IMG/VR virus record: IMGVR_UViG_3300044707_000140
Location: 1-64,000 of that record
Reading direction: 5' to 3' (one strand)
Length of the DNA stretch: 64,000 bases
Source of the DNA: a virus
The notes under the pieces were generated by a model. It saw only the letters and a program-made list of their open reading frames with translations, was not told the DNA's origin and ran no database searches. Positions 15,901-38,471 of this stretch are shown in pieces; the first letter of the stretch is position 1; every line of letters begins with the position of its first letter. The translations under genes and the position numbers were made by a program.

Positions 15901-18900
15901 AGTTCTACCCTGAGCAAGGAACTGTGTAAGACCAGGGATGAGCTGAGCCTGTGTACTATTAGTAACCACCACTCCTTTAACATCTGCTCTATTAGCTAAT
16001 GTAGGAAACTTAAATCCAAAACGATTAGCTCTTAATGCATGTTCTGTAGGAGGAATACCCTCTCTTTCAAATGATCTTGCAGAAGGACCTGTGGTGGCTT
16101 TATTTATTACTCGTAGAGATTTTCTTCGATCAGGTTGATATGCTCTATCATAAGGAGCATTTGCAATCCCTTGATTGAGTGTACCTAATATCTGATTGAT
16201 TACCTCTTCGTTCTTCTTAATACTTTTCTCCTCTTCCTTTCTAGAAAGCTCTTTGTCCATAGCTTTGTAGAAGGCTTCAAGAATCTGTTCCTTAGCACGC
16301 TGCTCTTTACCTATTGCATCAATCTGGTTATAGAGATCAGTGATTTTGTTACGTAAGTTGGTAACATCTTCCTCACTAATAGCAATCTCTTTCTTGAGAT
16401 CCTCAAGGAAGTTGTAGTCTTCTATCATCTCCTTAAGGCCAAGGATGTCTGTGTAGTTTACAGTTTTGGACTTACGGAGCTCATCAAACTTATCTCTAAT
16501 CTCTTGAGGGTATTGACTATCAAACTTTTGGAAAGCTGTCTTCAGCATAGACAGAAGATCCTTCATAGTATCTTCCACTGAATCCAACAGCTTAGAGAAC
16601 TGGTTGATTTGCTTACCACTAGATATGGCAAGATCTTTGAGCCCTTTTACCTGCTCATCCAGTTCATCCATCATGTCATAGAAGTCTTCAGGCAGTTCTC
16701 TTAGGTTCTGCATGAAGTCTTCAAAGTGAGAAACGTTAAACTCAAGGGCCTCTTTCTCAGCCTCCAGCTCACCTATTTCTCTTTCAAGATCTGTTCTAAG
16801 ATTTGCAAGCTTTGTTAAACCCTTCATAGATCTGTTGAACACCTTACTGAAGTCAGTGATGATAGATACATTGCTGTATTTATCCTTCACTCTGAACTGA
16901 CCTAATGTATCAAGATCTTCATTAAGTTTGGCTAAAGCTTCTTTTTTATCTACAATCTTACGATCAATCTCCTCAATTTTAGCTTTAGTCTCATCATGTA
17001 TCTCCTTGATAATCTGTCTTCTAGCAGCTATCTTGTTTTCCAGATTCACTCTTGCATCTTTCTCTGCAGCACTTTCTTCCTCACTAAGGATGGCATTTGT
17101 TGCTGGAGAGTATTTGCTATTAGTCCAGATTTGAGCACTGTCATAACCTGGTTTAATCTGGAACTGATCTAGATTTACAGGAATTCTGTGCTTAGGTTTA
17201 CCATTCTTTCTAAGCTCATCAGATTCAAAATAAAGAGTCTTGGTTGCTTTATCATATACAATCTTACCAATAGCTTCTTTACCACCCTTGAATCTGAAAT
17301 GATATTTGTTGTCAGAGTTTTCTACATAGAATCTAGCAGCACGGTTCATGTCAGCTTTCTTACTGAGCATATATTCTTCAAACACTGCAGGCTTTATGGC
17401 TAAGGTTCTACCATCATCAGTCTTTACAACAATATTTCCTTGCTCATTTGTACCAATCACTTGGAACTCAGAGAACTTCTGCACCTTAATACCATCAACA
17501 GTTTCAATAGTTTTGGCTCCAGCTACATAAGTTTCACCCACCTCAACATCTTTAACGCCATCTTTTGTCTTCACCTTGATGATGTCTTTAGGCTTCTCAC
17601 CTCTAGTGTTTGTAGGAGCTGTTGCCTCAGGAGTGGTGTACTTCTGAGGATTGTTTTTCATGTCGTTATACTCATTCATGAAAAGTTTCCTACGTAAAGA
17701 AAGCTCTACAACATCTCTTAAGTCTTGCTGAAGACCGTCTGTATCAACCGCATCTATGTTGGAAATATCAGCAGCAGCTTTATCAACAGCTTCTTTTACA
17801 GGCTTGCCCTCTTTGAAAATGCTAGATAGTATCTCAGAAGTGTCTACACCAGCCTCAGCCAGCCTAGCATTCACCTGAGGAATACGCACATCATAGTCAG
17901 CAATCTTGGAAGTGGCATATGCCATCTTATCAAGCACCTCAGGAGTGTAAATCTTCTTACCATCTGGTGTAGTAATTCCTCCAAATCTGATACCTAAAGA
18001 GTTGTATATTTCGTTAGTAGCAGTCGCTGCTTTCTCAAGATTGGCAACTCTCTGTTGGAAAGAGTCCACTGTATCATTGATATTAGCATAGCCTTGAGAC
18101 TTTAAGTTAGCTAATCCTCCAGCAGTGAGTCCTTCTTTTTTAAGGTCAGCCAGATCATCCATCACCATATCAAACCTACCATACTTAATACGCGTAGACA
18201 GGTAGTTATGCATCATGTCTCTCTTGAGGTCAAGAGCCTCAAGTTTATCTCCTTTTACAATTGCTTGTTGTTCTTGTTCTCTTAGAACAATACCTCTGTT
18301 AACAGAAGCAAGTCTGTCTTTGAATGCTTCTCTAAGTGTAGGAGCATTATTTAGTCCAGAGATGAACTGCTGTGTATTTGTAGCAAGGGCAGTGGATTGA
18401 CCAAACTTACCAATGGCTTGCATCAGTCCTCCAGTGATACCACCAAGAACCATACTTTCCATACCCTCTTTAGAAACAAAGGCACCTTTACCCTCACCTT
18501 TTTCATCTCTACCTGTAAGTCCGTATAGGAACCCATCCACCCAAAGACTAGCATCTCCTGTTTGTTCTGCTTTGTCAAAGTAGTTTTGTACACCTACCTG
18601 AAGGGCATATTGTCCAATCTCTTGACCAGCTTCTTTAGGATCAAACACATATCCTCCCACCTTCATAGATGTTTGGAATAGTTTTCCAAATCCAGTTTTC
18701 TCTGCAGCTTTGGCTACATACTTTCCATCTTTTAGGATGACATCATCTGCTCTTGTCAGAAGACTGTTAGCAGCATTCTTAGTAGAGCTATATGTTGATC
18801 CCAGTAAGTAAGGAAGTTGGGTGAACTCTGTTGCACTCAGAAGAGCAAGGTTTCCAAAGAAGGATGATTTACCTACAGCATCAGCTTTTGCATTGATTTC

Positions 18901-19917
18901 ATCAAGAGCTTGACCTACAGGTTCTTGTCCATTGTTAACTTGTTTGTATTCCTCAATAAGATTGTCTCTATACTCTTTGGCTGTTTGTAAAGCCTCAAAG
19001 CTAGACTCTCCTGCAGAAGAATAAGCAGCAACAAGGGCTCTTCTTCCCTCATCACCAAACTGTGCAAATCTGCTAGTTTGAGCAGCAACGTCTGCCAGTT
19101 TAGAAGTTCTTGTTGTAAGGTCGGCAATAGAAGATATTTCTTTTTCAAGAACAGTAGCAGCCTCTATATTCTTACCGTTGCTGAATGCTCTAGATAGATT
19201 CTTCAGTAGAGGTGTGTAGAGTTTAAATCCTTGTGCAGACTCAGCAGCAACAGCAGTGCTAGGGGCTAAAAATCCTCCAAGTGCTCTACCTGCTCTTAGG
19301 AGTCCAGCATTAGCAATATTACCACTCACCATTGCACCCACAGCAAAGCCAGAGTTTTTGATGAGTTTGTCAAATAAGAAATTGGTTTTTAACCAGTTAT
19401 CAGTGGAATACCAAGTGGCATTCTTTTCTACATCTGTATAGTAGTTAGGAAGGTATTCATTATCCACTTTATTGTTCCACTCATCTAATCCCCTCATCAT
19501 CTCATTATCCCATATGTCAGCAAGTCTTCCTGAGAAAGGAGACTTGGCTAATCCGTATAACATGCCCACACTACCAGCAACCGTGGTGGCTGTCAGGTTC
19601 ACACCCTTTAGAAGACCATTAACAGCTTTGTCAAGGTTAGATTGGGCATAAGCTTTTTGGTCCTCAATGTTTACAATATCAGGAGAATAGATAGCATACC
19701 TTCTGTTTTCATAAAGTTCTTGAGCACTTACAGTGGGGGCCATAGGTGTAACCACAGGCCCAGCACCGAAGAACCTATCTAATGCATTACCTGAATTCCC
19801 AGAAAGACCACCTTGCACACTTCCACGATTTACATTGGAAGAGGGGTTGTCTAACTCAGGAAGTTCTGTGTTAGTATTAGTGAGTAGGGGATTCAAGTTT
19901 TTATCAAAACCTGGCAT
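6991..19917 (-). CDS. Virion-packaged single-chain RNA polymerase (crAss-like, double-psi beta-barrel type) with zincin-like domain
   Basis: 4308 aa. Catalytic GSDFDIDK (9721-9744) preceded by RIPT. HEIFH...EELLA zincin motif (13831-13845). Gly/Ala hydrophobic N-terminal segments. Confidence 0.93.
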   Translation of the reverse strand: MPGFDKNLNPLLTNTNTELPELDNPSSNVNRGSVQGGLSGNSGNALDRFFGAGPVVTPMAPTVSAQELYENRRYAIYSPDIVNIEDQKAYAQSNLDKAVNGLLKGVNLTATTVAGSVGMLYGLAKSPFSGRLADIWDNEMMRGLDEWNNKVDNEYLPNYYTDVEKNATWYSTDNWLKTNFLFDKLIKNSGFAVGAMVSGNIANAGLLRAGRALGGFLAPSTAVAAESAQGFKLYTPLLKNLSRAFSNGKNIEAATVLEKEISSIADLTTRTSKLADVAAQTSRFAQFGDEGRRALVAAYSSAGESSFEALQTAKEYRDNLIEEYKQVNNGQEPVGQALDEINAKADAVGKSSFFGNLALLSATEFTQLPYLLGSTYSSTKNAANSLLTRADDVILKDGKYVAKAAEKTGFGKLFQTSMKVGGYVFDPKEAGQEIGQYALQVGVQNYFDKAEQTGDASLWVDGFLYGLTGRDEKGEGKGAFVSKEGMESMVLGGITGGLMQAIGKFGQSTALATNTQQFISGLNNAPTLREAFKDRLASVNRGIVLREQEQQAIVKGDKLEALDLKRDMMHNYLSTRIKYGRFDMVMDDLADLKKEGLTAGGLANLKSQGYANINDTVDSFQQRVANLEKAATATNEIYNSLGIRFGGITTPDGKKIYTPEVLDKMAYATSKIADYDVRIPQVNARLAEAGVDTSEILSSIFKEGKPVKEAVDKAAADISNIDAVDTDGLQQDLRDVVELSLRRKLFMNEYNDMKNNPQKYTTPEATAPTNTRGEKPKDIIKVKTKDGVKDVEVGETYVAGAKTIETVDGIKVQKFSEFQVIGTNEQGNIVVKTDDGRTLAIKPAVFEEYMLSKKADMNRAARFYVENSDNKYHFRFKGGKEAIGKIVYDKATKTLYFESDELRKNGKPKHRIPVNLDQFQIKPGYDSAQIWTNSKYSPATNAILSEEESAAEKDARVNLENKIAARRQIIKEIHDETKAKIEEIDRKIVDKKEALAKLNEDLDTLGQFRVKDKYSNVSIITDFSKVFNRSMKGLTKLANLRTDLEREIGELEAEKEALEFNVSHFEDFMQNLRELPEDFYDMMDELDEQVKGLKDLAISSGKQINQFSKLLDSVEDTMKDLLSMLKTAFQKFDSQYPQEIRDKFDELRKSKTVNYTDILGLKEMIEDYNFLEDLKKEIAISEEDVTNLRNKITDLYNQIDAIGKEQRAKEQILEAFYKAMDKELSRKEEEKSIKKNEEVINQILGTLNQGIANAPYDRAYQPDRRKSLRVINKATTGPSARSFEREGIPPTEHALRANRFGFKFPTLANRADVKGVVVTNSTQAQLIPGLTQFLAQGRTDVKPENTIALVMAIPSKDGKSYTLVNENGEAIPGKAETETDEQYRDRLHNSAVFQVFPLSIDNLFPESASEEAKLKTSAKFDQFRKDALAATTLTNYNVTASFGTPDRVKELDDKGNLKEDYVPVSVVDSGLVKQTDLTESPVLYVPTLEERITRGSTSFGNALGRVFLRLNNAYVALNNRQHTAKEANTIYQVIHRLSNIIVDENKKGKFVLENSPEAQRLIDWLRTVVYWGSPREGKVAGFNSVWFEKTEDGFKLFMSGKQNDEGKYTPVSEFTPTALEDNRGIITAVLERMFTNTNSRLTENDADYNKRYEQITGINPDGTIESVIWPNYQTYLLSPKQADGKGNRDGKEIPLTTNIRPQEDANDVNRNGIYFIINDADFDKKYTDQAPVANPAVSTTPQSKFELDGVSENRVKIGDNTIVFTADSKDLAGTVKISDKTDKALIDKLLESQPDREMVMNTLAQFVIGKIKEDQARVAKVVEAPKEAPKAAPAVAPAPVSTGYNLNGTAENTIPIAGADVVFTADEKDLAGTLRLVKVPDSLLENMRKVQQATTGKVDEDVIKNTVAAFVLTELQKATPKMIPQTPQIPEVNAETQANLDEAWDNTDPTPDDPELRRVLHSDLKKFSAENWPKVEKAIKQIFPNIPVYRVKNIITGTNGLQAWGMYKNGAIYIAENAVMGTALHEIFHPIWQNFATPEERLLIENEVRARKGSFVDRRTFQTIDYADATSKQIEELLADEFAEYYKDGKFPVEPKSLLARIFKQLVDFFKTFFTGKDAETNTNKLFDKIGKGYYNTLVMGESELAFAKVGVIDIEDAYITADASLSEIPIFTTKQVNDIMEQMTFLSIGYMQRDGQSLFDIDEEVKKSDVYARVKTNIMSKLKGMNEQLKNDAKAGLIAEDTALQRGMVYREMFNKIMLNWDKLVDAHEIYLKKYGIEFDENDDVNLKSDENSGKGEYDGAHKIDNYRKLNSAVKLVLATLPITDNNGKPIPSSIGGVNLVPLGEAYVSVMNNVHDSLNTEDMLSRIADMAANDTNYELLYQRLAKTSSENAPDWNAMQKHNIQLLTAFTIAFNKQNPEVKMLDILSEGGVQVSEGNLNTATRQIVKDFENGIRSVFLDPKNKYFTYDVKTKGYYSKPDAVKEMPIGTPQEKVKFLESFGITFNADDIINLETSNPGLFERFNIATNGVYKSLLEREKIATVTGKTLDITKRLRTLAAIKARIENPEFPSTFYGVNGEKLQTFIGTNPSNELYKNISAAPTYESLQGSNGYGYLYTDLFAQNSVILNAIFNIDKETKTGNKRTGGRVAEIMKTSVANGTNDQTSGRKKESSRLNQKERLIQEINMNLEGYYYNLVAGDASLEYQTYMGNHVSLEDMRRGYDTINEIFRGYLIDEINLAREDRRVAKDRNTDDLRFMNAILGPELSKQVLAQEGEAKDIVSRDAIKKKVDAAFERYIKAETAKLQNTLEKYGIVEKTKEDEYVVEDLSFSKSGVVSKANLDIHMSTITVNYMIANIEYHKLLYSDPYQYSDELKRIKNFLSPRQAILHGSANMNSVLDKVWNEGFEPEDYGRTDFTRDSFNSTTLADVIAMNEMPGYEGFKEPDGAGMITFKAHRNFRIRSSNWSAAEERQYRHDVAYKKLVDSGATDKQIAEFEKNNPAVKSAYTPSKPIVAGNKGGNKSYNDPVLDKFALYPLSFRVLNEMDRLAKHGESNAMKLLKKMEGENLDYVVYGSARKVGAEEINDVYNDKGEFNTAPYKGIINVPFSIMSVQSEVPSKEEDLVTRGSQMTKLITMDFMDAGVPIDFEKSKTFPERYKMWYDIKTEEGREEASPLYKEIKTNQSLLEALTDEGYKTFLKKLGLVEVGDEFVITDFSKAAKTLRNEILKREANSNTIAALNSFLEGKAVLEATPVYQQVRNILYSLADKNFISPKVTGGLKVQLPSTLLEAVRAKKEGDAYTSDFLKFYENKDGERYCEIMVGRWFKSDKTDEELLHYFNNTKEGQAQLAALTGVAFRIPTGKQNYIESFRIKRFLPAEYGDAVIVPSALVQKVGSDFDIDKLSVYLKNLYTDGRGNLKVVPYFGIGEKARAEFAKMIDSGEFLSKKQLQELDRIIEEEKDILFSPEYDLDGNPVGTEQQRLLRTIFAQAYDDQEITRDFVKSITKEEFKQALIDKLYKQSLENAYIQSSQNLVEREDNYAQLTRPNSSKELEDLSKKITKKLGLPTFDYTNVGNMLDRTFMSRLRHAFVTGKYAIGIAAVAQTNHSLNQREPIIIDPRKLSGLSKVDQYWLGDAQLKFADGFNTIDIDGNTYVSLSGIKSADKKYISNTIGMFIDGYVDISKGPWIIELGATYNVAGTYLFLVKAGVPVDTVSYFMNQPIVRDYLQNLENAGYSYLFNDRMVDEVKGKYKASKEQLAKVTQIPSKGKLLEMIGETRFDEKQKAEQQFILNEFLKYAKLSEQLMMVTQGTNYDTASFNDPFLVVKKEQQLIKARKSVISSPDNILKNSFLGTMRDRINRSKKAISKFLISDRGVIGDVLGKVIEPYTGMYNERDFLKVARKAVNDFFDWAVQIDSSRNALIPKLLLSDNNAPKEVMEFMTSIENKPDHPLFTNYIVGKNGIMQHQTPQKNGGVNNLSLKNKDNKVYDQDRVISSFREVREYLKGQNREGLYKKIIGVSILQSGLSTTPFSFTSLLPYEDFADIYNNVITKLEEESDIDVTKFYEVNAFQRNNWNNDDIVPSEKARGGYNYMGEPYYNLNMNFDKHGALLNAMRNGEIPQLLKLSSRTASAQADIVAYSWDVVPAGKTKIQMMKEGDYSFRKRGLFKKVYIDEANKIPAVLKEGKYENYVFQMINAWGDGFRANEFYTEPTVSVIDNGFVKVEPTTYTKEYTFQDKKYTMQGATSPERSNNYVARYFGAQAAETPIEIESQKTMKLKDGVTYAFPAINAKMLEEMGYAPEEAGKIITLTCKR

Positions 19918-25893: not shown

Positions 25894-26670
25894 TTATTGG
25901 TATTTATCTAACCATCCACCCTTGGTTGGTTTGTTATAGTTTGTAAAGTTAAGCAATTGGTCTAGCTTCTTAATGGGTTGAGCATCAGCATTATTTACAC
26001 TCACACCACCTTTAGCCATAGGATATTCTGTCACATATTCTCCATCAAACTCATAGTCTTCTCCTGGTTCCATGTATTGGACATCTCCTGTGTCAGATAT
26101 TCCGAGGAGGGGTTGATCTACACCCTCCATAGTGATTACATTTGAAGGGATGATGACAGGGCTTCCTACATTCTCAGGGTTCCAATATCCCATGGGATCT
26201 ACAGGAATATCACTACCATCCTGACTAATAGTCTTAGGTTTGAAGTCTAGTCCTGCTTGGTAGTATTTCATTTCCTGACCATTCTGTGCACTAGCCTTGG
26301 TCTTCTTAGCATAGGGACCGTTAGCAGGAGCAGCCCCTGATACACGTGCGTATGTGAATCCTACAGCACCAGGAAGAGATCCTCCCATAGCTAATTGCAT
26401 TGGGATAGGTTTAACACTGTCTCCCAACTGAGCCATAGGAACTGTTTGGTTAGCACCAGCCATAGCAGGCATGATGTTACCACCATCTTGAAACTGTCCA
26501 CCCCATGCAGGGCTGTAGTTACGTCCTTTGGTGTTGTATGCCCACCCTTTGAATCCAGGAGGCAGGCTCACATCAGAGTTGTTAGCGTTAGGTTTTTTAC
26601 CATAGTTATCTTTGGTCTTTTGTTTCAAGACCAATCCTCCTTGTTCATATTTATCTAACCAATTAGCCAT
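25894..26670 (-). CDS. Small cargo-type protein with GG motifs
   Basis: 258 aa. IPSNVITM.GV.....G...M.PG.DY.F.G..V.EYPMAKGG domain; WLDKY at both termini. Confidence 0.6.
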   Translation of the reverse strand: MANWLDKYEQGGLVLKQKTKDNYGKKPNANNSDVSLPPGFKGWAYNTKGRNYSPAWGGQFQDGGNIMPAMAGANQTVPMAQLGDSVKPIPMQLAMGGSLPGAVGFTYARVSGAAPANGPYAKKTKASAQNGQEMKYYQAGLDFKPKTISQDGSDIPVDPMGYWNPENVGSPVIIPSNVITMEGVDQPLLGISDTGDVQYMEPGEDYEFDGEYVTEYPMAKGGVSVNNADAQPIKKLDQLLNFTNYNKPTKGGWLDKYQ

Positions 26671-27536
26671 TATTTGTAAGAGATTTGGGCTGGTGTAATA
26701 ATAAACTGAGATACCAAGTGAGCATCAAAACGATTGTCAAGGATGTGTCTCACTTTCAACTCTTTAGCTCTCAGGGGCTCCTTCTTGAAAGATCTCTTGC
26801 CATAGTCCATGTTAGCCTGGTTTACCACCTTATCCAAAGATAAGGACTCACATGTACGTACGAAAAGAGGTTCCTGTTTATACTTAACCAATGACCAGAA
26901 CGTGTTGTACTGGTAGAAGTTATCACTCTTAGTAAACGTAATTGTCTTACTATCAGTGTTATATATAGGATACTTCAAGTAGTCCTTGAGGTTGTTGATT
27001 GGTTTAGGAACCAACTCTAGGATACCAGTGGACTGCTGACCATTATATAACACAGCCTTATTGAACCAAGCGTTGTCAGTTTCTATCTTGCGGTTGTCAT
27101 CAGATATACCATCTGGATCAGGGAAGTATCTATATGCCTTGGTATAATCCTGTACACTCTGAAGAATCTCATCCTGATACTGGTAGGCAAATGGATACTC
27201 GATGATGTAAGGTTCGATGTTTCCGTAGAAGTAGTTATACACCACTGGATTCTTCAAGTGTCTCCAGATACAAGCACTGTACAACTGTTTAAAAGTGAGT
27301 GTCACCTGTTCATTAGGTGTCACCTCAGAGATGGGGAAGTTGATAGACTTTTTACAACTACCCGTGGAAGTGATGATAATAACAGTGGCATTACTGTCAA
27401 CGCTATAAGTGACACCATCAATTAGCTCACTCTTAGGCACACCCGTAGCTATTACATTTCCAAGATTGTCAGAAATGTTAAAAGGTCCACTCCTGGGAGA
27501 GGCTTTCACTAGCTTTATGAATACAATCTGAGGCAT
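26670..27536 (-). CDS. C-terminal portion of muzzle/tail-stabilisation protein fused to an N-terminal GPFN beta domain
   Basis: After ~85 aa: IWRH..YNYFYG..EPYIIE...FNKAVLYN.QQSTG..EL...LRAK.LKVR, resembling the C-terminus of crAss-like stabilisation proteins. Confidence 0.65.
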   Translation of the reverse strand: MPQIVFIKLVKASPRSGPFNISDNLGNVIATGVPKSELIDGVTYSVDSNATVIIITSTGSCKKSINFPISEVTPNEQVTLTFKQLYSACIWRHLKNPVVYNYFYGNIEPYIIEYPFAYQYQDEILQSVQDYTKAYRYFPDPDGISDDNRKIETDNAWFNKAVLYNGQQSTGILELVPKPINNLKDYLKYPIYNTDSKTITFTKSDNFYQYNTFWSLVKYKQEPLFVRTCESLSLDKVVNQANMDYGKRSFKKEPLRAKELKVRHILDNRFDAHLVSQFIITPAQISYK

Positions 27537-27537
27537 T

Positions 27538-30500
27538 TTATAAAGGTGGTAGGGTTGTTGTTGTTGTAGTTGTTACTGGTGGTTCTGTTGTTGTAGTGGT
27601 GGTAGTACATACTATACAATCCTGACCACTTGTACAAGATATGCCACATAAGGTGATAATCACTCCTGGGTCAGAATAAGGCACCGCTTTAGTGCTAAAG
27701 CATAGGTTTTCAATAGATTCTGGTTCTATAGAAGTGTAAGAAATTTGTGCACTTCCACATTTATATCCAGCTACATAACGAATAGAATCTGTTGTGTTAT
27801 AAACAACATAACACTCACAAGGATAGGCAGTAGTGGTAGTAGTTGTTGTGCTAGTGCTAGTAGTAGTAGTTGTGATAATTTCACAAGCTACACCCTCTAA
27901 ATCACAGCCTGTATAAGCTGTTGTTGTAGTGGAGGTTGTAGATGTGGAAGTTGTTGTAGTGCTACTGGTGGTAGTGGTTGTAGTGTTTGGAACAAGATTA
28001 CCCACAACAGCTTCAAAATCTGAACAGCAATCATTGAGTCCTGAGTAGAAGAAATTGTTCTCACCAATGTACCAGTTAGGGATATAGCTATGGAAGCTTA
28101 TCCAACTCTTAGTATTGAAGTTAAAAGATACTGTCCAGCTCTTGTTACAGAAATATTCTGTATCTGTCAGGAACACTTCTGTTTTAATTAGTTTCTCTTC
28201 ACCACAGCATTCTACAGGCTTTTCTAAGTAGAACTTCTTATCTGCATCATCATATATGATATTATCCACCTTTGGAATATAGTCAAGTTTGGTTATCAGG
28301 ATGCGATCATATTTACTATCATACACCCCATGTAGACCAACACCAGTGAAATGATTGTCCACATCCAGGTTGGGGAAATAACGTAGGATTTCAAAGGCCA
28401 GATGGTCTGTAAAGAACCTGTTCATTCCTGATCCAAATCCTGATAAATCAACCGCTTGTGTACCACTGATAAGAAATACCTGACCACGTTTAGCATCTAT
28501 AGTCACTTGTCCTTGCGGTATCTTCAGGAGCATCTTGTTCTGGGTTCCTACATATCCCAAATCAGTTTCTGCAAAATCAATTGGGGGAGCTCCTCTGAAC
28601 AGTGAAGGATTACCAACATATGCTGCCTGAGGGTTGCTAGTATCAATAGTTAACAAGTTGTTGTACATCAACGTCTTGTTCTCAAATCTAGCCAAAATAG
28701 CTCTGTTCTGAATTCCATCTAAAGAGATGAGATCTCCAAAGTTTTGAGGGAAGTCAAAGTAAGATATTGCTCTGTAAACCAACCAGTTATTTACTCTGTT
28801 ATCAGCATCTATATTTTGAGGATCTGAGTAGATGGTTCTGAAAGGATACTGTGTATAACATATTGCCTTCCAGTCAAATGGTAGATGAGTGAATGTGTTT
28901 TCTCTGTTTTGCTTAGAGAATGTTACATTATAATAGTAGGTGTTGTCCTGAGCGATAGGAACGTAGCTTTCTTGCACCCAATCATCAGGAATACTTGTAC
29001 TTACATGAGGCCAGAAGTCTCCTTCTCTATTGTTAAAAGCTTGACGTAAATCAACGTTGTAAGAACTCTCACAATAGAAATAAGGGATTCCATAAGCAAA
29101 CTGGTACATCTTACCATCATAGAAAGTTCTACCATTACTAGTAATAGGAGTTTGACTATTAGGACAGTCAAGATTATTAGCCTTAATAGAGAAGAAGTTT
29201 GTCAATACAGCTGTCTCAATTGACGCATCTACAAGGATGGAACGTGCTGAGTGCCAGTATTCTGGATAAGCCACGTTACCTATCTCATCATAGAATATGT
29301 CACTATCATCAGGAGCATTCACACGGTTGTCAATAAAGAAAGGCAGTTTGGTCTTGAAGGCAAACTTGTTAATGAATGTATCACCACCAAAGAATGTAGC
29401 TGTAGCAGTTGTTGCAGGAGTGATGTCTTTTTGAAATCCTGTGTCCACTGTATCATAAGAATAAATCTGTCCGTATTGATTAACAAATATATTCTTGAGA
29501 GATCCATAATAAGAGATAACACTTATATATTCATCTTTAGCAGGAACAGAACAATTGTCTAGATTTCCATCAACACCTGCATCACTAAGTGTCATTCTAG
29601 ACCTATCATTTACAGTGCCTGATATAGTGGGGGTTTGATTAGGGAATGGAAGAGGATCTCTAGCAAAGCCAAGAGATGATTCTTTAGTTTTTAAATATAC
29701 AGAACTCTCTCTATTCCAGTTGTTTATATCCTTATTATCATTAACACCTTGTACACCAGGAATCAGGTATTGCTTGAGATCAAGTTCACGTTGCTTAACT
29801 CCTATTCCGTTAGCAATTGAATTACTATAGTCGTAGCTAGCAATTGAGTTGTAGGAATATGAATAGTTTTGTCTAGTGATACCGTTTACATATATTGTTA
29901 GATAGGCTTGATAGGCAGCAAATAGAGCAGTGGCATTGTATGCACCAGTGGTAATTACTGCTATTTGGTTAGCGCTATTTAATGCATCATTTTGAGCCTC
30001 AAGACTTACCAGTCTGTACATTGCATTATCTCTCACTTGTGTAAAGTGAGCCCTACCAGCACCAAATATTACGTTCTCTAGCTTTAGCACACCACCTAAG
30101 AATGGTTGCCCAAAGGATGTTTCAGGAGAGTTGAATACATGTCTATATTTAGATCCTTCATCTTTAAATCCATCAAGTTGACCTGGAGCACAGAAATCAT
30201 ATCCAACTTTGTCTGTTAGTTCAATACTATAACCACCATCACCACTTTTGTAGGTGGGAGGGTTAAGAGATGGTATGATTCTAACACCACCAAATAAAGA
30301 TCCATCTACAAACCACTGTCTTTGTTTAAGGGCAGACATCGTTCCATTAGGGTTGCAACATCCATTAGTTGGATTGAGAGCACAATATTCTGCCCAATCA
30401 GTATATCCTACAGGAGTAGGCAGTAAGCTTCCAGTAGCAGCATCTATTCCACAAGTACCAATAGGAGGATAGAAGTTAAATGTTGTACTATCAGAAGCTG

Positions 30501-32592
30501 CCACCGTAATCTTATACCAACTATATGTATTAGATATAATTGACCCCTTTGCTCCTTGATCAAGTGTAGGGGATGGAAAATCTAGTGCACACAGATTAAA
30601 TGACTCGTTCACAGGAAAATCACCACTTGCACCAATTGTTTTTGTAACACTTTCTCCTGAATAACAATCAATATAGTTTATGGTACCAGGTTCTGTTGCA
30701 TATACAGTGAACTGTCTACACACAGAGGATGTACTTCTAGATGCAAGAGGAACTGTGTAAGCATTACTGTTCTCTAACAAGAATGGATCTTGTCTAAGAT
30801 CGTTGTAAGGATAGTTAGGGAAATAGTATTCTTGACCCTCACGCTCATATTTACCCACATTTCTGAGGATACCCTTAGCCACGATGGACTTATTCGTGCT
30901 TCTATCACCACGTATAATCTTAAAGCCAGCTATCTGGTTTTTCTGTTCAGTGGTGAGACCAGACGCCTGAATAAGAGAACTTACTTGTTGAACATCTATT
31001 CTTACACCCATTGGGAATATTGCATCCCTTTGGATAGCCATAGAGTTTTGGCCTGTGAAGATGGCAGACTCAAATATAGGACTCACTAGAACATCTGGGA
31101 ACTTATGGTGTCTAATGGGTTGACCAGCCAAATCTCCCCACAACTCATCGTTGCAAGGATAGTCTTCTGTAGACTCCCAATAGCTAAACTCACCATATTG
31201 ATAAGGTCCTTTGTAATCTGTTGCTGAAGAATAGCCAGGAGAGAATCCTGTAACTGTAGCTGTGTTATATATCTTCCAATAGGGACTAGTTCCTGTTAAA
31301 GGATCTGGATCACCTATAAAGTCATCATTTGTTGGAGAAACAGGAGATAGGTCTAAAATGTTTGCAAGTCTACTAGGAATATGAAATCCATCAGTTTGCT
31401 TACCGTTGTTAAGCAGAAACACTATCTCAAAGGCATACACCTCATCCCTCAGATACCCTCTAAGGTTAGTGGCATTGAATGCATCAGCATATGTTTCTGT
31501 ATTAGGAATACGATAAGTTTCCCATAGAAGATTAATACCATTAGCTATCTTCTGGTAGTTAATTCTCTCTACAGATGTAAGTTGGTCCCAAACTAATATG
31601 TCACGTACAGCTGTTACATCCTGAGCAATCTCATAATATGGAAACTTCTCAAGTATATCATTGATTGTCAGACGGATGTTAGTTTTGTTCTGACCTGTAT
31701 AGGTAATCACCTGACTTAGACCATCAATGAAATAAGTGCCTATCAACTCTACAGAGGTGATAGCGTTTACAGTTTTAATAACTGCTACATTAAAATAATC
31801 ATATAGTCCTGTATTATCTAAGTTGCTGACAGTGAGCTCAATAGATCTACCCACCTGATAATTAAAATTAGCAGTGGTGATACTTGGATCAGCAATAGGA
31901 GTGGGATTGGTAACAGAGTAGTAGGAAGTGAAAGGATTTCCAGCAGGATCGGAATACTGAATAGCAAACTGATATGTACCTGCTTGAAGATCTCCTCCTG
32001 TGGTGATTCTAGTGACATCCAACTGAGGAATAATAAAATCAGGTTGAACGTTCAGTCCATTACAATCTATCTGATCACTGTACACAGGATCGCACGCAGG
32101 GGTGCCTCCTATAAGAATATAGGGTAGATTTTCTGGGTTGAGATCAATATATCTACGGGGATTAAGACCATCTGTCCAATACACCTCTGTTGTGCATTCT
32201 GTGATTCTGTGAACAGCCTTATGAATTGGATAGTTAATGTTGAAGTTGAGACAAGCGGGATTTACATAGGTGTGATAGATACAATCATTATTATCCATAT
32301 ACCCTATCTCAGAAGCACCTGTTTCTGGGTTGGTGATAAAGAATACATGTTTGCTTCTCTCTTGGATGAAGTGTGTACCTATTAATGCAAAGCCAGAAGG
32401 GAATGTAACGCAAAGTTCATTCCCTGGCTCATTCTGATAGTTAACAGAATTAGCATCAAAGTTTTCTACAGCAGCATTCAGCGCATACGTTAGCTTACCC
32501 TTAGGAATCTGGTTGAGGGTCTGATCGAGGTTTAAGCCAGTGGTAGCGTTGTTAAACTCCTGTCTAATATTGCCTTGTTCTTGCTCAGCCAT
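27538..32592 (-). CDS. Muzzle / tail stabilisation protein (P22 gp10-like), N-terminal part, with Thr/Cys-rich tail
   Basis: 1684 aa. GLNLD..YALNA start, YLRDEVYAF, IRHHKFP, IDAKRGQVF, SWTVSF..WISFHSYIP. Located next to ring/IHF genes. Confidence 0.85.
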   Translation of the reverse strand: MAEQEQGNIRQEFNNATTGLNLDQTLNQIPKGKLTYALNAAVENFDANSVNYQNEPGNELCVTFPSGFALIGTHFIQERSKHVFFITNPETGASEIGYMDNNDCIYHTYVNPACLNFNINYPIHKAVHRITECTTEVYWTDGLNPRRYIDLNPENLPYILIGGTPACDPVYSDQIDCNGLNVQPDFIIPQLDVTRITTGGDLQAGTYQFAIQYSDPAGNPFTSYYSVTNPTPIADPSITTANFNYQVGRSIELTVSNLDNTGLYDYFNVAVIKTVNAITSVELIGTYFIDGLSQVITYTGQNKTNIRLTINDILEKFPYYEIAQDVTAVRDILVWDQLTSVERINYQKIANGINLLWETYRIPNTETYADAFNATNLRGYLRDEVYAFEIVFLLNNGKQTDGFHIPSRLANILDLSPVSPTNDDFIGDPDPLTGTSPYWKIYNTATVTGFSPGYSSATDYKGPYQYGEFSYWESTEDYPCNDELWGDLAGQPIRHHKFPDVLVSPIFESAIFTGQNSMAIQRDAIFPMGVRIDVQQVSSLIQASGLTTEQKNQIAGFKIIRGDRSTNKSIVAKGILRNVGKYEREGQEYYFPNYPYNDLRQDPFLLENSNAYTVPLASRSTSSVCRQFTVYATEPGTINYIDCYSGESVTKTIGASGDFPVNESFNLCALDFPSPTLDQGAKGSIISNTYSWYKITVAASDSTTFNFYPPIGTCGIDAATGSLLPTPVGYTDWAEYCALNPTNGCCNPNGTMSALKQRQWFVDGSLFGGVRIIPSLNPPTYKSGDGGYSIELTDKVGYDFCAPGQLDGFKDEGSKYRHVFNSPETSFGQPFLGGVLKLENVIFGAGRAHFTQVRDNAMYRLVSLEAQNDALNSANQIAVITTGAYNATALFAAYQAYLTIYVNGITRQNYSYSYNSIASYDYSNSIANGIGVKQRELDLKQYLIPGVQGVNDNKDINNWNRESSVYLKTKESSLGFARDPLPFPNQTPTISGTVNDRSRMTLSDAGVDGNLDNCSVPAKDEYISVISYYGSLKNIFVNQYGQIYSYDTVDTGFQKDITPATTATATFFGGDTFINKFAFKTKLPFFIDNRVNAPDDSDIFYDEIGNVAYPEYWHSARSILVDASIETAVLTNFFSIKANNLDCPNSQTPITSNGRTFYDGKMYQFAYGIPYFYCESSYNVDLRQAFNNREGDFWPHVSTSIPDDWVQESYVPIAQDNTYYYNVTFSKQNRENTFTHLPFDWKAICYTQYPFRTIYSDPQNIDADNRVNNWLVYRAISYFDFPQNFGDLISLDGIQNRAILARFENKTLMYNNLLTIDTSNPQAAYVGNPSLFRGAPPIDFAETDLGYVGTQNKMLLKIPQGQVTIDAKRGQVFLISGTQAVDLSGFGSGMNRFFTDHLAFEILRYFPNLDVDNHFTGVGLHGVYDSKYDRILITKLDYIPKVDNIIYDDADKKFYLEKPVECCGEEKLIKTEVFLTDTEYFCNKSWTVSFNFNTKSWISFHSYIPNWYIGENNFFYSGLNDCCSDFEAVVGNLVPNTTTTTTSSTTTTSTSTTSTTTTAYTGCDLEGVACEIITTTTTSTSTTTTTTTAYPCECYVVYNTTDSIRYVAGYKCGSAQISYTSIEPESIENLCFSTKAVPYSDPGVIITLCGISCTSGQDCIVCTTTTTTTEPPVTTTTTTTLPPL

Positions 32593-32597
32593 TAGTA

Positions 32598-33569
32598 TTA
32601 GTTATTGCGTCTCCAACCATATCTATTGCTACGGTTGGGTAGTTCGTACATGTTAAATCTGTTCAGGTCATTCTTAATCCTACGTTGCTTAGCCCACGGG
32701 TCTTGTTTCTTAATCTCAATATCAGCCATGATGAATGCCTCCTCAGCTTGTTGTTTGTAATATCCAAGCTTTTGTTGGAGCTGATTAAAGGTTTCATCAT
32801 TGGTCTGGTTAGTGAGGGTTTCCATCATTTTAAACTTGATGAATGCCTCAATATATTCCCTGATACGAAAGTTGTTGGGAATCATTTGATTTCCAATAGC
32901 ATCGTATTCTGTAGCATAGAAAATCAGATGCACAATACCATTACGGAAGTTAGTGACAAACTTATTGTCTCTAACGTCAAATGAGTCATACCCAGCAGAA
33001 CCAGGTGTGAACTCACGTAGAGGAGGAGCTTCTGAATAGAACTCCCAATTGCTAGTGTATTCCACTCCACAGTTTCTTTGAGCCGAGATGTTACCAGGTT
33101 TAAGTAGGTATTGTCTTTGATAAAGAACAGGAGCTTGATTGTTTGTTTTGTAGACAGTCTGGATTATTTCAGGCATACAAGATCCATCACATCCCACATT
33201 TCCACAACAAGGGCTAGGGATAGAGCAATCTGTAACAATAGGGCTCACCTGAATAGTAGTGGCTGTAGCAGCCTGAGAATAGAATGAGTTTGCTTGTTGA
33301 TAAGGATAACCATTTACAGCTGTACAAAGCCATGCCTCACGAACAGCATAAAAGTTGTCTGGGAGTCTAGCTTCGTAGTCACAGATGTTTAACACTTGCT
33401 CCTGAATCACAAACGTAGCTCTGCCTAGTTTGAGTAGACATTTCTCTAGGTATGTAGGAAACATAAGATCGTCAATAGCCCCTGTATCGAAGTAGCTTTT
33501 AAACTCTTCCTTTACAGTGGAATAGACAATCTCAGGGGAGATAAAGTTATATTTGTAATAGTATGACAT
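32598..33569 (-). CDS. Tail ring/tubular protein (P22 gp4-like)
   Basis: 323 aa; synteny upstream of the muzzle gene; F.TNF.NG.VHL..Y...D..G..MIP motif. Confidence 0.7.
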   Translation of the reverse strand: MSYYYKYNFISPEIVYSTVKEEFKSYFDTGAIDDLMFPTYLEKCLLKLGRATFVIQEQVLNICDYEARLPDNFYAVREAWLCTAVNGYPYQQANSFYSQAATATTIQVSPIVTDCSIPSPCCGNVGCDGSCMPEIIQTVYKTNNQAPVLYQRQYLLKPGNISAQRNCGVEYTSNWEFYSEAPPLREFTPGSAGYDSFDVRDNKFVTNFRNGIVHLIFYATEYDAIGNQMIPNNFRIREYIEAFIKFKMMETLTNQTNDETFNQLQQKLGYYKQQAEEAFIMADIEIKKQDPWAKQRRIKNDLNRFNMYELPNRSNRYGWRRNN

Positions 33570-33574
33570 CTAGT

Positions 33575-34051
33575 TTACTTTTTCCATTCGTGATAAATAT
33601 GTTGATACCTATCGTTGGTTTTGATATAGTGAGATAACAATCTGGATGTTGTTCTGGAGGGTTTGAAATACCACAGTTTTGAATGTTTAAACCTTGCTGT
33701 ATCCTTGAACCAAACCCATCCAAAGAAATAACCCTCTGTGTGAAAGTTGAAATTATATATACGCTTACCTTTCTCTTTTGTCTTCTTCCAGTCTATAGGC
33801 AGGTTGATAAACTCTTTCCCATCCACTCCCTTCATCTTCCTACGCTTCTTCTTGTTTATTGAAAACTCACCAAACCCAAATGGAAGCTTTGCTCTTTCTC
33901 CTGTCTCTAGAATGTACTCTTTGAAAGCATCACTAAAACCATAGACAATATTTCTCCATTCATCAAATGTTAATTTGACGGAGGGGTTTTTCTTACAGAA
34001 ATTGTTGTAGTTATCTTTACTGGCGCTTCTCCAGTCTATTTTAACTCGCAT
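33575..34051 (-). CDS. IHF/HU-like DNA-binding protein
   Basis: LPFGFGEFSI.KK..., IDWKKTKE; conserved crAss-like IHF position between ring genes. Confidence 0.75.
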   Translation of the reverse strand: MRVKIDWRSASKDNYNNFCKKNPSVKLTFDEWRNIVYGFSDAFKEYILETGERAKLPFGFGEFSINKKKRRKMKGVDGKEFINLPIDWKKTKEKGKRIYNFNFHTEGYFFGWVWFKDTARFKHSKLWYFKPSRTTSRLLSHYIKTNDRYQHIYHEWKK

Positions 34052-34779
34052 TATCTAGTGTTTGGAACATTAGGTGCTTGACCATCAACTCCATCACTTG
34101 TAATGTCTGTCTTTAATCTAAAGTAGGTGGATAGTAACTTCTGGGAAGTTAGCTCTAACACTTGCTTTTCTAGGTAGCCAGGAACAGGAGACTCTTTATC
34201 AAGAGGATTCTTGCAAAGTTCTTCTGTTGTATATTCTGGGGTACCACAGCCACATTCTGGAAACATAATGGAATTTGGAACATCCTCCTCGAACAAAGCA
34301 ACAAGTCTGATGGCTTTCAGAAGGGGGTTATTCACATAGAGATATCCATTAGCAATCCAGTAGTATTCTTCCTTCTTAATGATAGGAAGCTTAAGCAAGT
34401 TGATATATCTATTGATGGTTATTTCTTTTAGTTTCTTTCCTTGTCCACTTAATGCATTAATAGAGTAGACACCCTGGATAACGTATTGATAATTACCCTC
34501 TGTAATGCGTGGCAACTTAAATTTGGTTCTTGCCACCGTGCAAGGATCTACATAATCACAACATTCAGAAATAGGAACTTCCACCATCTCTAGACAAGGG
34601 ATGGTGGTGAACACTGTATCAGTGGCCCACAACTTCCTTAGATTAGTCTCACGTTTAATCAAAAGGAAGGCATTATTCTTAATCTCGGACATAACAGCTC
34701 TATCCGTGATCAAGTTGTCTGTAGACAGCAACTTGTGCATAGAGCGTACATCCGAAACTAATTTCCTAAAAGTAGACAT
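34051..34779 (-). CDS. Tail ring protein
   Basis: 242 aa; CLEMVEVP...C...LP...YY.I.NGYLY pattern; synteny. Confidence 0.65.
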   Translation of the reverse strand: MSTFRKLVSDVRSMHKLLSTDNLITDRAVMSEIKNNAFLLIKRETNLRKLWATDTVFTTIPCLEMVEVPISECCDYVDPCTVARTKFKLPRITEGNYQYVIQGVYSINALSGQGKKLKEITINRYINLLKLPIIKKEEYYWIANGYLYVNNPLLKAIRLVALFEEDVPNSIMFPECGCGTPEYTTEELCKNPLDKESPVPGYLEKQVLELTSQKLLSTYFRLKTDITSDGVDGQAPNVPNTR

Positions 34780-36205: not shown

Positions 36206-36787
36206 TTAAAGACCGCAAGGTCCTGTAGGTGTTATACTTCCACTTCCTCCAGTTTGAACAACTGTTCCAGTTTCTGCACATATTGATATGCCACCTGAAC
36301 CTACAGTTTGTGTTAAGAATTCACCTGAGCATGCAAACCACTCTATACTAATAGATGGACTACCCACCACATCATATTGTGTACAGTCTAAAGGAGCTTC
36401 TGTAGTGGTGGTGGTAGTTGTAGGTGGTGGCTCTGTAGTGGTTGTTGTAGTTGTTGTTGGAGGTACTTCTGTAGTGGTGCTTGTTGTAGTAGATGTACTA
36501 GTAGACGTACTAGTTGATGTACTTGTAGTGGTTGTAGAAGAAGTTGATGTTGTGGTGGTACACTCTCCACTTATTGTAATATCTATGTAATTGGTGCAAA
36601 GTGCACTATTAGACATCACCCTAATAATAGTGGTTCCATTAGGAACCAGAGATGTTGTGTATCCAGATAAAAGAGCCGCTTTACTCACACCAGTCTCGAA
36701 AGCTGATACAAACCCATCAACATCTGAGTAGAGATTGAATGGGCCTGTATCAGTTCCAGCTGTTGTTAATGTTATTGTTACAGTCAC
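36206..36787 (-). CDS. Modular surface protein: GPFN domain + Thr/Ser linker + Cys domain
   Basis: Translation; GTG start. Confidence 0.7.
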   Translation of the reverse strand: MTVTITLTTAGTDTGPFNLYSDVDGFVSAFETGVSKAALLSGYTTSLVPNGTTIIRVMSNSALCTNYIDITISGECTTTTSTSSTTTTSTSTSTSTSTSTTTSTTTEVPPTTTTTTTTEPPPTTTTTTTEAPLDCTQYDVVGSPSISIEWFACSGEFLTQTVGSGGISICAETGTVVQTGGSGSITPTGPCGL

Positions 36788-36798
36788 AAATCAGTTGT

Positions 36799-37362
36799 TT
36801 AGACAGTGGTTGTAGTGGTAGTAGTTGTGGGAGGTGCAATTGTTGTAGTGGTAGTGGTTGTAGGTGGTGTAATCGTAGTGGTTGTTGTAGTTGTGGGACA
36901 CGCTCCAAGAGTTGACAGCGTTACACCAGGGGTTGGTGGTACAACAACAGATTCTGTACAAGCACAGACGTAAATAGTACCAAACGCACCAACCACAGCA
37001 GTTGTATAAATACCACCACAAGAATAGTAAATAATCTCTGCAGGAGTAATTGTACTGTTGTTTACAGAGTAAAACTCACAAGAAGGACATGCTATTGTAG
37101 TTGTAGTGGTTGTTGTAGAGCTAGTGCTTGTGGTAGTTGTAGTAGTTGTTAAACTATTCACCAGTGTTTGAAGAGCTGTAATTTGACTCTGCAAATCACA
37201 CACCTCAGCATCTATTTTTTGTAGAGATACAGTGACTGTATCACATGTATGAATTCCTGTACAAGGCAGGTTAGGACCACTATAGCACACATTATCTGTT
37301 GGTGTACATGGAACATTACAGGGGTCTACAGGAGCGTAGTTAGGTTGATTGCAACAAGACAT
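36799..37362 (-). CDS. Modular fibre-like protein: docking motif + coiled coil + Thr linker + Cys domain + Thr tail
   Basis: CYSGPNLPCTGIHTCDTVTVSLQKID, heptad repeats, poly-Thr tracts. Confidence 0.7.
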   Translation of the reverse strand: MSCCNQPNYAPVDPCNVPCTPTDNVCYSGPNLPCTGIHTCDTVTVSLQKIDAEVCDLQSQITALQTLVNSLTTTTTTTSTSSTTTTTTTIACPSCEFYSVNNSTITPAEIIYYSCGGIYTTAVVGAFGTIYVCACTESVVVPPTPGVTLSTLGACPTTTTTTTITPPTTTTTTTIAPPTTTTTTTTV

Positions 37363-37382: not shown

Positions 37383-38471
37383 TTAAGGAATATACATGAT
37401 ATAGTAACATCCAAGACCAGGCTGGAAGTTCGGGTGACCTAATCCTCCTCCTGCAGAACCAACACTGACTGCCACAGAAACTCCTGTAACTGCTGTGTTT
37501 GTGGTGGTTGACGAACTTTTTGTACCATCTTGATCCATGTAATCAGCAACCGCTCCTGGCTCATCTGGATCAGAAAATCCAGGTGCATACGCAAGAGTGT
37601 GTGTATGTCCAGGGTCAGTTACAGTGGCTGTAGCTGAGTGAGAGTGAGCAGCAATCTGAGCAGAGGTAAGTACAATAGAGTTGGCTCCTTGTGTTCCTAG
37701 TAATGTATAAGAAGGATTTCCAGCAACCGCAGGATCAACAGCAGGATTGAGGGGTCCTCCACCCATGCCTGTTGTAGTACCTACAGGTACACGCCCTCTT
37801 TTATCAGGAGTTCCGTTGTTACCATTACAGAGGTAGATTTTATCAAAAGCACCAATACCTGCACCAGATACATCGAAATTACCAGTCAGTGAACCATAGT
37901 ATTCAACAACAGTGAAAGGCACCATTCTATCCTTGTATGAAGTAGTAGGAGAAGGTGGTGTACAAGCTGCCACTAGAGCGCACAGTTCTGATTTCTTTAC
38001 ATAGTTAGTTTCAACATCTATTACAAAAGCATCAAAGTCAGCAATGTGTGCACAGAGCTTTGTAATTACTGCCTGAAGGATGGCATGAGTTCCAGAAGTG
38101 GAAGTTACACCATCTAGACATCCTACAGTGTAGGGTCCTTCTAGTGCAGCAAAGTCATCCTCTAGAGCAGTAACTCGTGTGTCTAGCTCACATACAGCTT
38201 TGATAATAGCATTGATTACATTAGGAAGTGTAAGGTCTTCACAGGCTACTAGATTCTTATTAACAATCTCACAAATGATTTGTGGGTTAATGTCTAGTTT
38301 AATACCTGTACCGTTTAGTGTAGAGACAAGAAATCCAATCAATGCTTGCTCTACATAAGAGAGCGAATCACCAGTTTTGATTCCCAAAATAGGAACATCA
38401 ATACCTGTATACTTAACACACTGATCAGAAACAATCTCTGTACATCCGTTATAGCAATTTGAGCAAGACAT
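37383..38471 (-). CDS. Fibre protein with tail-collar domain
   Basis: LCNG.NGTPD.RGRV.VG ... LT..QI.AHSH ... H.N.QP...YIM (tail collar / microcystin-dependent-protein-like); N-terminal docking motif. Confidence 0.8.
   Translation of the reverse strand: MSCSNCYNGCTEIVSDQCVKYTGIDVPILGIKTGDSLSYVEQALIGFLVSTLNGTGIKLDINPQIICEIVNKNLVACEDLTLPNVINAIIKAVCELDTRVTALEDDFAALEGPYTVGCLDGVTSTSGTHAILQAVITKLCAHIADFDAFVIDVETNYVKKSELCALVAACTPPSPTTSYKDRMVPFTVVEYYGSLTGNFDVSGAGIGAFDKIYLCNGNNGTPDKRGRVPVGTTTGMGGGPLNPAVDPAVAGNPSYTLLGTQGANSIVLTSAQIAAHSHSATATVTDPGHTHTLAYAPGFSDPDEPGAVADYMDQDGTKSSSTTTNTAVTGVSVAVSVGSAGGGLGHPNFQPGLGCYYIMYIP

Follow-up and report, generated by a model that had tools for sequence, protein, structure and literature searches.

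Introduction

The muzzle protein, a conserved gatekeeper in crAss-like phages, has been described as one chain, with about 1 MDa per hexamer. Here we describe a muzzle gene that is divided in two, located in a stretch of 64,000 nucleotides (the window, to which coordinates refer) from the virus record IMGVR_UViG_3300044707_000140, which is 98 kb long as a whole. The nearest cultured relatives of this phage infect Flavobacterium and Leptolyngbya. Three described muzzles, gp44 of crAss001 (PDB 7QOK/7QOL/8CKB; PF25731), gp29 of the Flavobacterium phage FpV4 and the muzzle of the Leptolyngbya phage Lbo-JY46, belong to the same family as the protein of the window according to Pfam, PHROG, BLAST and hhalign. 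Each of them is one chain with a loop of 4-17 residues at the site where the gene of the window is interrupted.

The closest precedent, judged by analogy of architecture, appears to be the split nozzle of the Pseudomonas podophage A1002, which consists of the nozzle-rope gp39 and the nozzle-base gp42 (PLoS Biol 2026, PMC13730344). The nozzle-base is without parts of the platform and the propeller, which are supplied by the second protein, and the N-terminal part of this second protein carries an immunoglobulin-like (Ig-like) domain and a fibre-docking rope of 300 Å, on which 11 fibre dimers dock (PMC13730344). As in the window, a nozzle-type tail protein is present as two polypeptides, which in A1002 together complete the β-propeller and the platform, and an Ig-like domain lies in an extension at the N-terminus of the fragment with the C-terminal propeller/platform parts. 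However, the A1002 lineage is unrelated to the phage of the window, and the likeness considered here is one of architecture. Moreover, the extension of A1002 is a rope, whereas the extensions in the window are poly-Thr linkers with hypervariable mini-domains, and the reassembly of the two chains is seen in A1002 and only inferred here. The principle of a split nozzle is thus already known from one unrelated phage, and we found no report of a split crAss-like muzzle in the literature searched.

The muzzle of the window is encoded by two genes

The muzzle gene of the window is represented by two adjacent genes, P0001 for the N-terminal fragment and P0002 for the C-terminal fragment. They lie on the minus strand, as does every gene of the muzzle region, and consist of the following parts (lengths in amino acids, aa; HMM, hidden Markov model; i-E, independent E value).

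27538-32592, minus strand: P0001, muzzle N-fragment gene, 1684 aa
28039..32592, minus strand: muzzle N-fragment core, P0001 residues 1-1518, with the conserved WISFHSYIPNWY..NNFFYSG motif at its end
27985..28038, minus strand: loop stub LNDCC..., P0001 residues 1519-1536, 18 aa with two Cys, one of them conserved
27919..27984, minus strand: poly-Thr/Ser linker 1, P0001 residues 1537-1558, 22 residues (translation and run scan)
27874..27918, minus strand: mini-motif AYTG-CDLEGVACE-II, P0001 residues 1559-1573, a single instance of the recurrent C.L.G(T)A.E
27820..27873, minus strand: poly-Thr linker 2 plus AYP, P0001 residues 1574-1591 (translation)
27607..27819, minus strand: four-Cys β-rich module, P0001 residues 1592-1662, 71 aa (HMM i-E 3e-15)
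27541..27606, minus strand: poly-Thr linker 3, ...TTTTTTTLPPL, P0001 residues 1663-1684, followed by TAA at 27538-27540
26670-27536, minus strand: P0002, muzzle C-fragment gene, 288 aa, beginning 1 base past the P0001 stop
27276..27536, minus strand: GPFN domain, P0002 residues 1-87, an N-terminal Ig/FN3-like β-sandwich that opens MPQIVFIKL...SGPFNI
26673..27275, minus strand: muzzle C-fragment proper, P0002 residues 88-288, with the stop at 26670-26672

The translation agrees with the initial annotation, made from the sequence of the window, which had described a 1684-aa open reading frame (ORF) ending in poly-Thr, a Cys domain and more poly-Thr, and one base further on a 288-aa ORF with a GPFN start that then returns to muzzle-type sequence. 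The junction reads TAA-A-ATG, and the muzzle-type sequence picks up again at IWRH, from P0002 residue 90. Compared with single-chain muzzles, P0001 has gained a tail of 166 aa with Thr-linked modules and P0002 an Ig-like head of 87 aa.

Both fragments are homologous to single-chain muzzles. P0001 matched the Pfam family PF25731 crAss_MUZ with 112.9 bits (cut-off 27; E 1.8e-32) as well as two PHROG virion-protein families (phrog_37948, E 9e-107), and its residues ~1264-1516 align weakly to positions 1034-1219 of the 1224 positions of the PF25731 profile. Residues 88-286 of P0002 matched positions 1588-1781 of 1783 in phrog_15100 (E 1e-10), a family that the N-terminus of P0001 matches too. In BLAST comparisons with the single-chain muzzle of Lbo-JY46, P0001 showed 33-38% identity over residues 30-605 and 874-1519, the alignment running to residue 1519, which corresponds to Lbo-JY46 residue 1455, and P0002 residues 88-288 aligned to Lbo-JY46 residues 1461-1654, the end of that protein (29% identity, E 4e-23). 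The two alignments are therefore only about 5 residues apart in the single chain. Consistently, tblastn placed P0002 residues 88-288 at the extreme 3' end of single genes in Lbo-JY46 (1654 aa) and FpV4 (gp29, 1961 aa). The last ~150-200 residues of the muzzle are hence not contiguous with the rest of the protein in the window, and are encoded by a separate gene. This bears out the proposal of the initial annotation that the muzzle is a naturally split protein interrupted in a loop, and the comparison of the 288-aa protein with muzzle C-termini, which it had suggested as a check, gave clear homology.

The same short-loop site can be located in the chain of a solved homologue. Neither P0001 nor P0002 had a direct sequence match in the PDB. 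In crAss001 gp44 (1371 aa; PDB 7QOK), the chain is continuous at the site (...EFYAF-KDGK-MWEQF..., from residue 1229), and the position equivalent to the break lies at about residues 1233-1238. A profile of unsplit relatives aligned to gp44 with hhalign without interruption across gp44 residues 949-1304 (probability 96%, E 2e-9), and the conserved motifs that flank the break are common to the fragments of the window and to the single-chain proteins of crAss001, FpV4 and Lbo-JY46. The IG2/crass insertion of gp44 comprises residues 318-1021 (PMC10172136). Because the site lies C-terminal to this insertion, the break would fall in the ring-joining domain and/or the later blades of the propeller.

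Relatives confirm the split, which is conserved and probably of single origin

Considered from the window alone, the split could be an artefact, since the frames of P0001 and P0002 would be fused if the TTT run ahead of TAA were one T shorter. Relatives of the locus argue strongly against this. A scan of IMG/VR with P0002 yielded 415 related stretches, 80 loci of which were kept (67-99% identity); all fetched loci numbered 160, and the non-redundant split muzzles 93. In 80/80 loci kept, the C-fragment is preceded by a stop and a spacer, which varies in length and sequence and often contains stops in several frames, and begins with an ATG of its own. Among 144 ORFs with the C-terminal part of the muzzle in the 160 fetched loci, 143 bear a GPFN domain at their own N-terminus, and the sole exception is the unsplit gene of locus L088. 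Sequencing error or a frameshift is excluded by these relatives, as they keep separate genes with varied spacers and stops in several frames. The suspicion, voiced in the initial annotation, that the stop and start might be an assembly error has therefore been dispelled, because independent assemblies all keep two genes. At the second junction of the window, between P0003 and P0004 (see below), no single indel fuses the frames.

In a large protein database, 2639 proteins of 158-504 aa matched P0002 at E <= 1e-3 (the best 120 of them nearly all 288 aa), and the same database contained 154 long unsplit relatives with up to 76% identity, in which the loop between ..FFYSG and WRH.. has 5-17 residues. 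In BFVD, the deposited 'Virus NIOZ-UU157' has the same split protein (55% identity) and, besides it, four more GPFN proteins. In 43 loci, moreover, a whole gene lies between the muzzle-N and muzzle-C genes. In two relatives (L067 and L069), a 75-aa ORF (MIKYLKNENAVIKV...) with neither a GPFN domain nor Thr tracts is situated between them, just upstream of position 10001, which indicates that the gap between the fragments accepts unrelated genes. Recoding is not suggested by the relatives either: the ends of the N-fragment (LPPL, TAPL, IAPL, TIAP, ECPS, EEVC and others) and the spacers vary widely, no conserved slippery or intein-type junction is apparent, and no intein family was found at E <= 0.1 in Pfam scans of P0001 and P0002, with no dedicated search run for either. 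We consequently regard an assembly error, a pseudogene, programmed frameshifting or protein splicing to one chain as a scarcely credible explanation of the locus. The split is real and is conserved across many uncultured crAss-like phages of freshwater, which make up a large clade.

In a muzzle tree built on the last ~203 residues, 42 split rows and the unsplit protein P0282 formed one clade (SH-aLRT, an approximate likelihood-ratio support, of 95), and the sister clades were all unsplit. This topology fits a derived split with a single origin. Since the muzzle-type GPFN domain also appears to have been acquired once (see below), a single insertion event would fit both. P0282, encoded by L088 (IMGVR_UViG_3300033571_020867), is the only unsplit muzzle among the fetched relatives; it lies inside or beside the split clade, and its loop reads LNDC...SC-MWRH. 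As far as sequence goes, it could be either a basal member or the product of secondary loss of the insert, that is, of re-fusion.

A second junction of the same type in the tail-fibre block

The initial annotation had also pointed to a second junction of this type at 37362-36206. It does exist, and is formed by the following two genes.

36799..37362, minus strand: P0003, 187 aa, with a Cys-rich N-terminus, coiled coil, poly-Thr, Cys module and poly-Thr tail
36206..36787, minus strand: P0004, 193 aa, GTG start, with a free GPFN domain, poly-Thr linkers and a C-terminal Cys module

P0004 begins VTVTITL...TGPFNL after an 11-nt spacer past P0003. The Cys-module HMM matched P0003 (E 2e-13) and P0004 (E 3e-16), and the GPFN HMM matched P0004 at E 1e-26; the GPFN domains of P0002 and P0004 are homologous (41% identity, E 1e-6). 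Over the whole 98-kb record, the GPFN HMM matched P0002 and P0004 only, and the Cys-module HMM matched P0001, P0003 and P0004. P0003 is probably a fibre-like protein of the tail-fibre block, a short fibre, because its N-terminus resembles the Cys-rich N-terminus (MSCSNC...) of a 362-aa tail-fibre protein. The gene for the latter adjoins P0003 at 37383-38471, and its product has a C-terminus of tail-fibre/collar type (phrog_8763, phrog_8469). In the relative L007, which is ~99% identical, the P0003 homologue has a shorter terminal Thr tail than in the window, indicating that the ACN-repeat linkers expand and contract between near-identical genomes.

Two further observations concern these elements. 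A weak copy of the four-Cys module, without Thr linkers, lies inside the P0001 core (residues ~627-672, 30577-30714; HMM i-E 0.005), and may be an older insertion into the crass/IG2 region. A 395-aa protein of the structural block (39509-40696; phrog_15060, a family of no assigned function) ends in a short Cys and poly-Thr tail (...CITTTSTTTTVWPSTTTTSTLIP), and its gene is the third of the virion block with a Thr-rich C-terminus.

The GPFN domain heads a large family of free proteins

The GPFN domain was defined by an alignment of 26 sequences (A1) as a unit of about 75 aa. Its profile retrieved 1998 cluster representatives at E <= 1e-3, and 1208 at <= 1e-10, from 1.84 billion proteins. With two or three exceptions, the best 150 matches have the domain beginning at residue 1-5, in proteins of 77-491 aa, and no single-chain intermediate with an internal GPFN domain was found among proteins of 505-2000 aa, which is weak evidence. 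An ESM Atlas search with P0004 returned unnamed viral clusters only.

The fetched loci contain 0-3 free GPFN genes each. These genes sit in the tail-fibre block, as does P0004, and/or between muzzle-N and muzzle-C (the 43 loci mentioned above). A strict regular-expression search had suggested that the two positions are mutually exclusive, a notion that we rejected when the HMM scan gave 6 loci with both. The layout of the free genes is constant, with the GPFN domain followed by a poly-Thr linker and a variable C-terminal domain or domains; the shortest products, of 77-87 aa, consist of a GPFN domain and a Thr stub. Some of the free genes follow genes without a Thr tail. In phage receptor-binding proteins, a conserved N-terminal anchor with exchangeable C-terminal binding domains is standard, and Ig-like decoration domains on virions are known. 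The free GPFN proteins resemble this scheme in having a conserved ~75-aa N-terminal domain, hypervariable C-terminal modules and modules that are swapped between genes. They differ from typical receptor-binding proteins in that GPFN, whose role as an anchor is putative, is also fused to a piece of the muzzle, and in that long poly-Thr tracts serve as linkers instead of coiled coils or β-helices.

In a tree of GPFN domains, the muzzle-type (n=102) and free-type (n=126) sequences part on a single branch (SH-aLRT 91), so the muzzle copy would have been acquired once. L088, whose muzzle is unsplit, has three free GPFN genes upstream, and the free family is thus independent of the split. Judging from these sequences, the free GPFN family is probably older than the split of the muzzle. 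In the split forms themselves, GPFN is kept at the N-terminus of the C-fragment in 143/143 cases, with conserved residues across proteins that are 68-100% identical.

An AlphaFold2 (AF2) model of P0002 residues 1-80 (predicted local distance difference test, pLDDT, 81-90) is a small β-sandwich with one short helix. Its best match among solved structures was a C-terminal domain (CTD) of the type IX secretion system (T9SS), RemZ CTD (8GL8_D; Z 6.1, root-mean-square deviation 2.4 Å, 65 residues, 17% identity), a small seven-strand β-sandwich like GPFN itself. It might be speculated that the GPFN domains, six at the muzzle plus those of the free proteins, mimic T9SS C-terminal sorting domains and dock the tail tip on PorV/SprA. 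If this were true, a wide translocon would serve as receptor or as conduit for DNA and for large ejected cargo proteins, and crAss-like phages do eject large cargo proteins. However, many FN3 domains gave tied scores (Z 5.0-5.8), there was no match to Pfam Por_Secre_tail at E <= 0.1, and T9SS sorting domains are C-terminal, whereas GPFN is N-terminal in nearly all of the best 150 matches. We consider such mimicry very improbable; at the level of models, the structural matches indicate a common Ig-like arrangement and nothing more. In a milder version, drawn by analogy with the rope and socket of A1002, free GPFN proteins could be strung on a glycosylated Thr-rich tail of the split muzzle.

The tail of the N-fragment is hypervariable

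The 93 non-redundant split muzzles have N-fragment tails of 17-649 aa (median 236), while the 600 core residues beside the tail are 66-100% identical to those of the window. Near-empty tails of 17-32 aa occur in some split muzzles (L012, L026). When the tails and the free proteins were divided at their Thr linkers, 298 distinct segments resulted, which fall into 72 clusters. The four-Cys family makes up the largest of these, 57 of its members coming from muzzle tails and 42 from free GPFN proteins, and several further clusters are likewise common to both. An alignment of 59 Cys modules (A3) has four conserved Cys, and the AF2 model of the module of the window based on it is all-β (pLDDT 91.6, predicted TM-score, pTM, 0.77). 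No significant solved relative was found for this module (Foldseek against the PDB, E > 0.5; VIA, best Z 4.4), and its look-alikes in BFVD (TM up to 0.76) are uncharacterised proteins of uncultured phages only. The mini-motif C.L.G(T)A.E occurs in 0-6 copies per tail in the relatives, is often the last element before the stop, can be repeated in tandem, and is absent from 23/93 tails.

These data modify the view that a fixed two-gene cassette, which recurs as a free gene pair, had been inserted in the muzzle. The type of junction does recur as free genes, but the cassette is not fixed: GPFN heads a large free family of 1998 representatives, some of its genes come after genes without a Thr tail, and the Cys module is 1 of about 72 types.

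They also bear on the possibility that GPFN, on the C-fragment as well as on the free proteins, binds an element of the N-fragment tail (the mini-motif, the Thr-rich C-terminal peptide or the Cys module) like a socket and its plug. The halves of the muzzle would then be clamped together, and the free proteins would be docked on a rope-like tail, as the fibre dimers are in A1002. In favour of this, the stop/start junction sets the end of a tail beside the start of a GPFN domain at both loci, the mini-motif is so often placed where the tail ends, 43 loci have a free GPFN gene directly between muzzle-N and muzzle-C, and an Ig-like sandwich could take an added β-strand, just as the A1002 fibre dimers dock on the nozzle-rope by β-sheet augmentation (PMC13730344). 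However, the count of mini-motifs, which we tried as a measure of docking sites, showed no correlation with that of free GPFN genes (rho 0.08, p 0.43), almost a quarter of the tails lack the mini-motif and some lack modules altogether, free GPFN genes are also found behind genes without a Thr tail, and the phage with the unsplit muzzle has three of them. Binding of this kind is thus improbable, and an obligatory pairing of the Cys domain with GPFN is not supported, given the split muzzles with tails of 17-32 aa. Of the two options offered in the initial annotation, a plug-and-socket pair or independent display modules, the latter fits the data better, with about 72 interchangeable types of module.

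Alternatively, the split may be a neutral scar: one recombination would have put a gene junction in a permissive loop, the modules of the muzzle tail and the GPFN domain would have no role, and host binding would rest on the free proteins and fibres only. The apparent single origins of the split and of the muzzle-type GPFN, the persistence of split forms with almost empty tails, and the possible loss of the insert in P0282 are in line with this explanation. It is nevertheless unlikely, as the retention of GPFN in every split form, with conserved residues, argues for purifying selection, and folded modules, subject to turnover and common to the free proteins, are present in most tails.

Neighbouring genes

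The genes around the muzzle and some others of the record are as follows.

32598..33569, minus strand: Ring protein 1 homologue (PF24228 CrAss_Ring_1, E 3.5e-9)
34051..34779, minus strand: Ring protein 2 homologue (PF25702 CrAss_Ring_2, E 3e-17)
L169:2410-3207, 3173-3739, 3744-4289 and 14863-17079 (in G000, 83410-84207, 84173-84739, 84744-85289 and 95863-98079): glycosyltransferase/methyltransferase genes

The ring-protein homologues lie directly upstream of P0001, as in crAss001. Giant ORFs of 4308 aa (6991-19917) and 2019 aa (930-6989) are found downstream of the muzzle block, where crAss-like phages have their cargo/virion RNA polymerase genes, and a giant gene is placed similarly in FpV4. 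The muzzle genes of crAss001, FpV4 and Lbo-JY46 likewise lie between ring proteins, upstream, and large genes of cargo-like type, downstream.

The record contains genes for a methyltransferase, for two glycosyltransferases of family GT2 and for a methyltransferase-GT1 (GT-B) fusion, the last of them open at the end of the contig. It is plausible that these enzymes O-glycosylate the poly-Thr tracts of the virion, and other targets are possible. A 385-aa protein with collagen triple-helix repeats (L169:9893-11050; PF01391, E 2e-12) is encoded near the glycosyltransferase region.

A proposed role of the two-chain muzzle as a display scaffold

We propose that the muzzle of these phages consists of two polypeptides, is reassembled by fragment complementation and at the same time acts as a display scaffold for host adhesion, a reading to which we assign a probability of roughly 0.6 (0.62). 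What the data show is the split with its conservation and its one clade, the limits of the domains, the exchange of modules and the predicted folds, and from these we deduce the reassembly, the insertion, the outward display and the adhesion. An ancestral single-chain muzzle gene would have been interrupted once, in the short loop about 200 residues from the C-terminus, by DNA in which a Thr-linked module gene, represented by its 3' end and a stop, was followed by a start and the 5' end of a GPFN-domain gene; a junction of this type is present in the tail-fibre block of the same genomes. The N-fragment (with its 1518-aa core) and the C-fragment (the last 201 aa of P0002) would be translated separately from the adjacent genes, and this translation is probably coupled, as the one-base spacing suggests. 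In each of the six muzzle subunits, the C-terminal β-propeller/ring-joining part would then be formed by fragment complementation. Indirect support for reassembly comes from the solved homologue, in which the region is one continuous domain, and from AF2, which folds residues 1-80 of P0002 but leaves residues 88-288 unfolded on their own (pLDDT below 50). At its new C-terminus, the N-fragment would have a free end, at which poly-Thr linkers, perhaps O-glycosylated, and β-rich modules could be gained, lost and swapped by recombination, while the new N-terminus of the C-fragment would bear an Ig-like GPFN domain from the family that heads free, C-terminally hypervariable proteins. Most likely, the modules would act as adhesins or bind glycans, reaching from the tail tip to the surface of the host.

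Several points weigh against this proposal. The reassembly of the two fragments is deduced from homology, and the loop at the break site is presumed to face outward. A Cys lies within 6 residues after ..YSG in 93/93 non-redundant split forms, but only 64/93 have a Cys before WRH on the C-fragment side, and a universal inter-chain disulfide at the base of the loop had to be rejected. The Cys module has no significant match to a lectin or carbohydrate-binding module (best Z 4.4), and adhesion is thus suggested only by hypervariability and position. The split muzzles with near-empty tails in L012 and L026 indicate that display is not required for the split to persist, and L088, unsplit yet equipped with three free GPFN genes, indicates that the free proteins do not need a muzzle GPFN.

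The locus is of interest for the biology of these phages in several respects. A large natural clade with a two-chain muzzle amounts to an experiment, already set up, in which fragments of a β-propeller-type tail protein would complement each other. Two domain families, both abundant and uncharacterised, have been defined, the N-terminal Ig-like GPFN domain and a four-Cys β module without a solved relative. The poly-Thr linkers, together with the glycosyltransferases of the phage, would make a case for virion O-glycosylation outside actinobacteriophages, and the hypervariable locus could be used to track host-range evolution in freshwater phage populations. Taken together with A1002, the split muzzle suggests that tails may have evolved repeatedly by nozzle splitting, which frees chain ends for appendages that bind the host.

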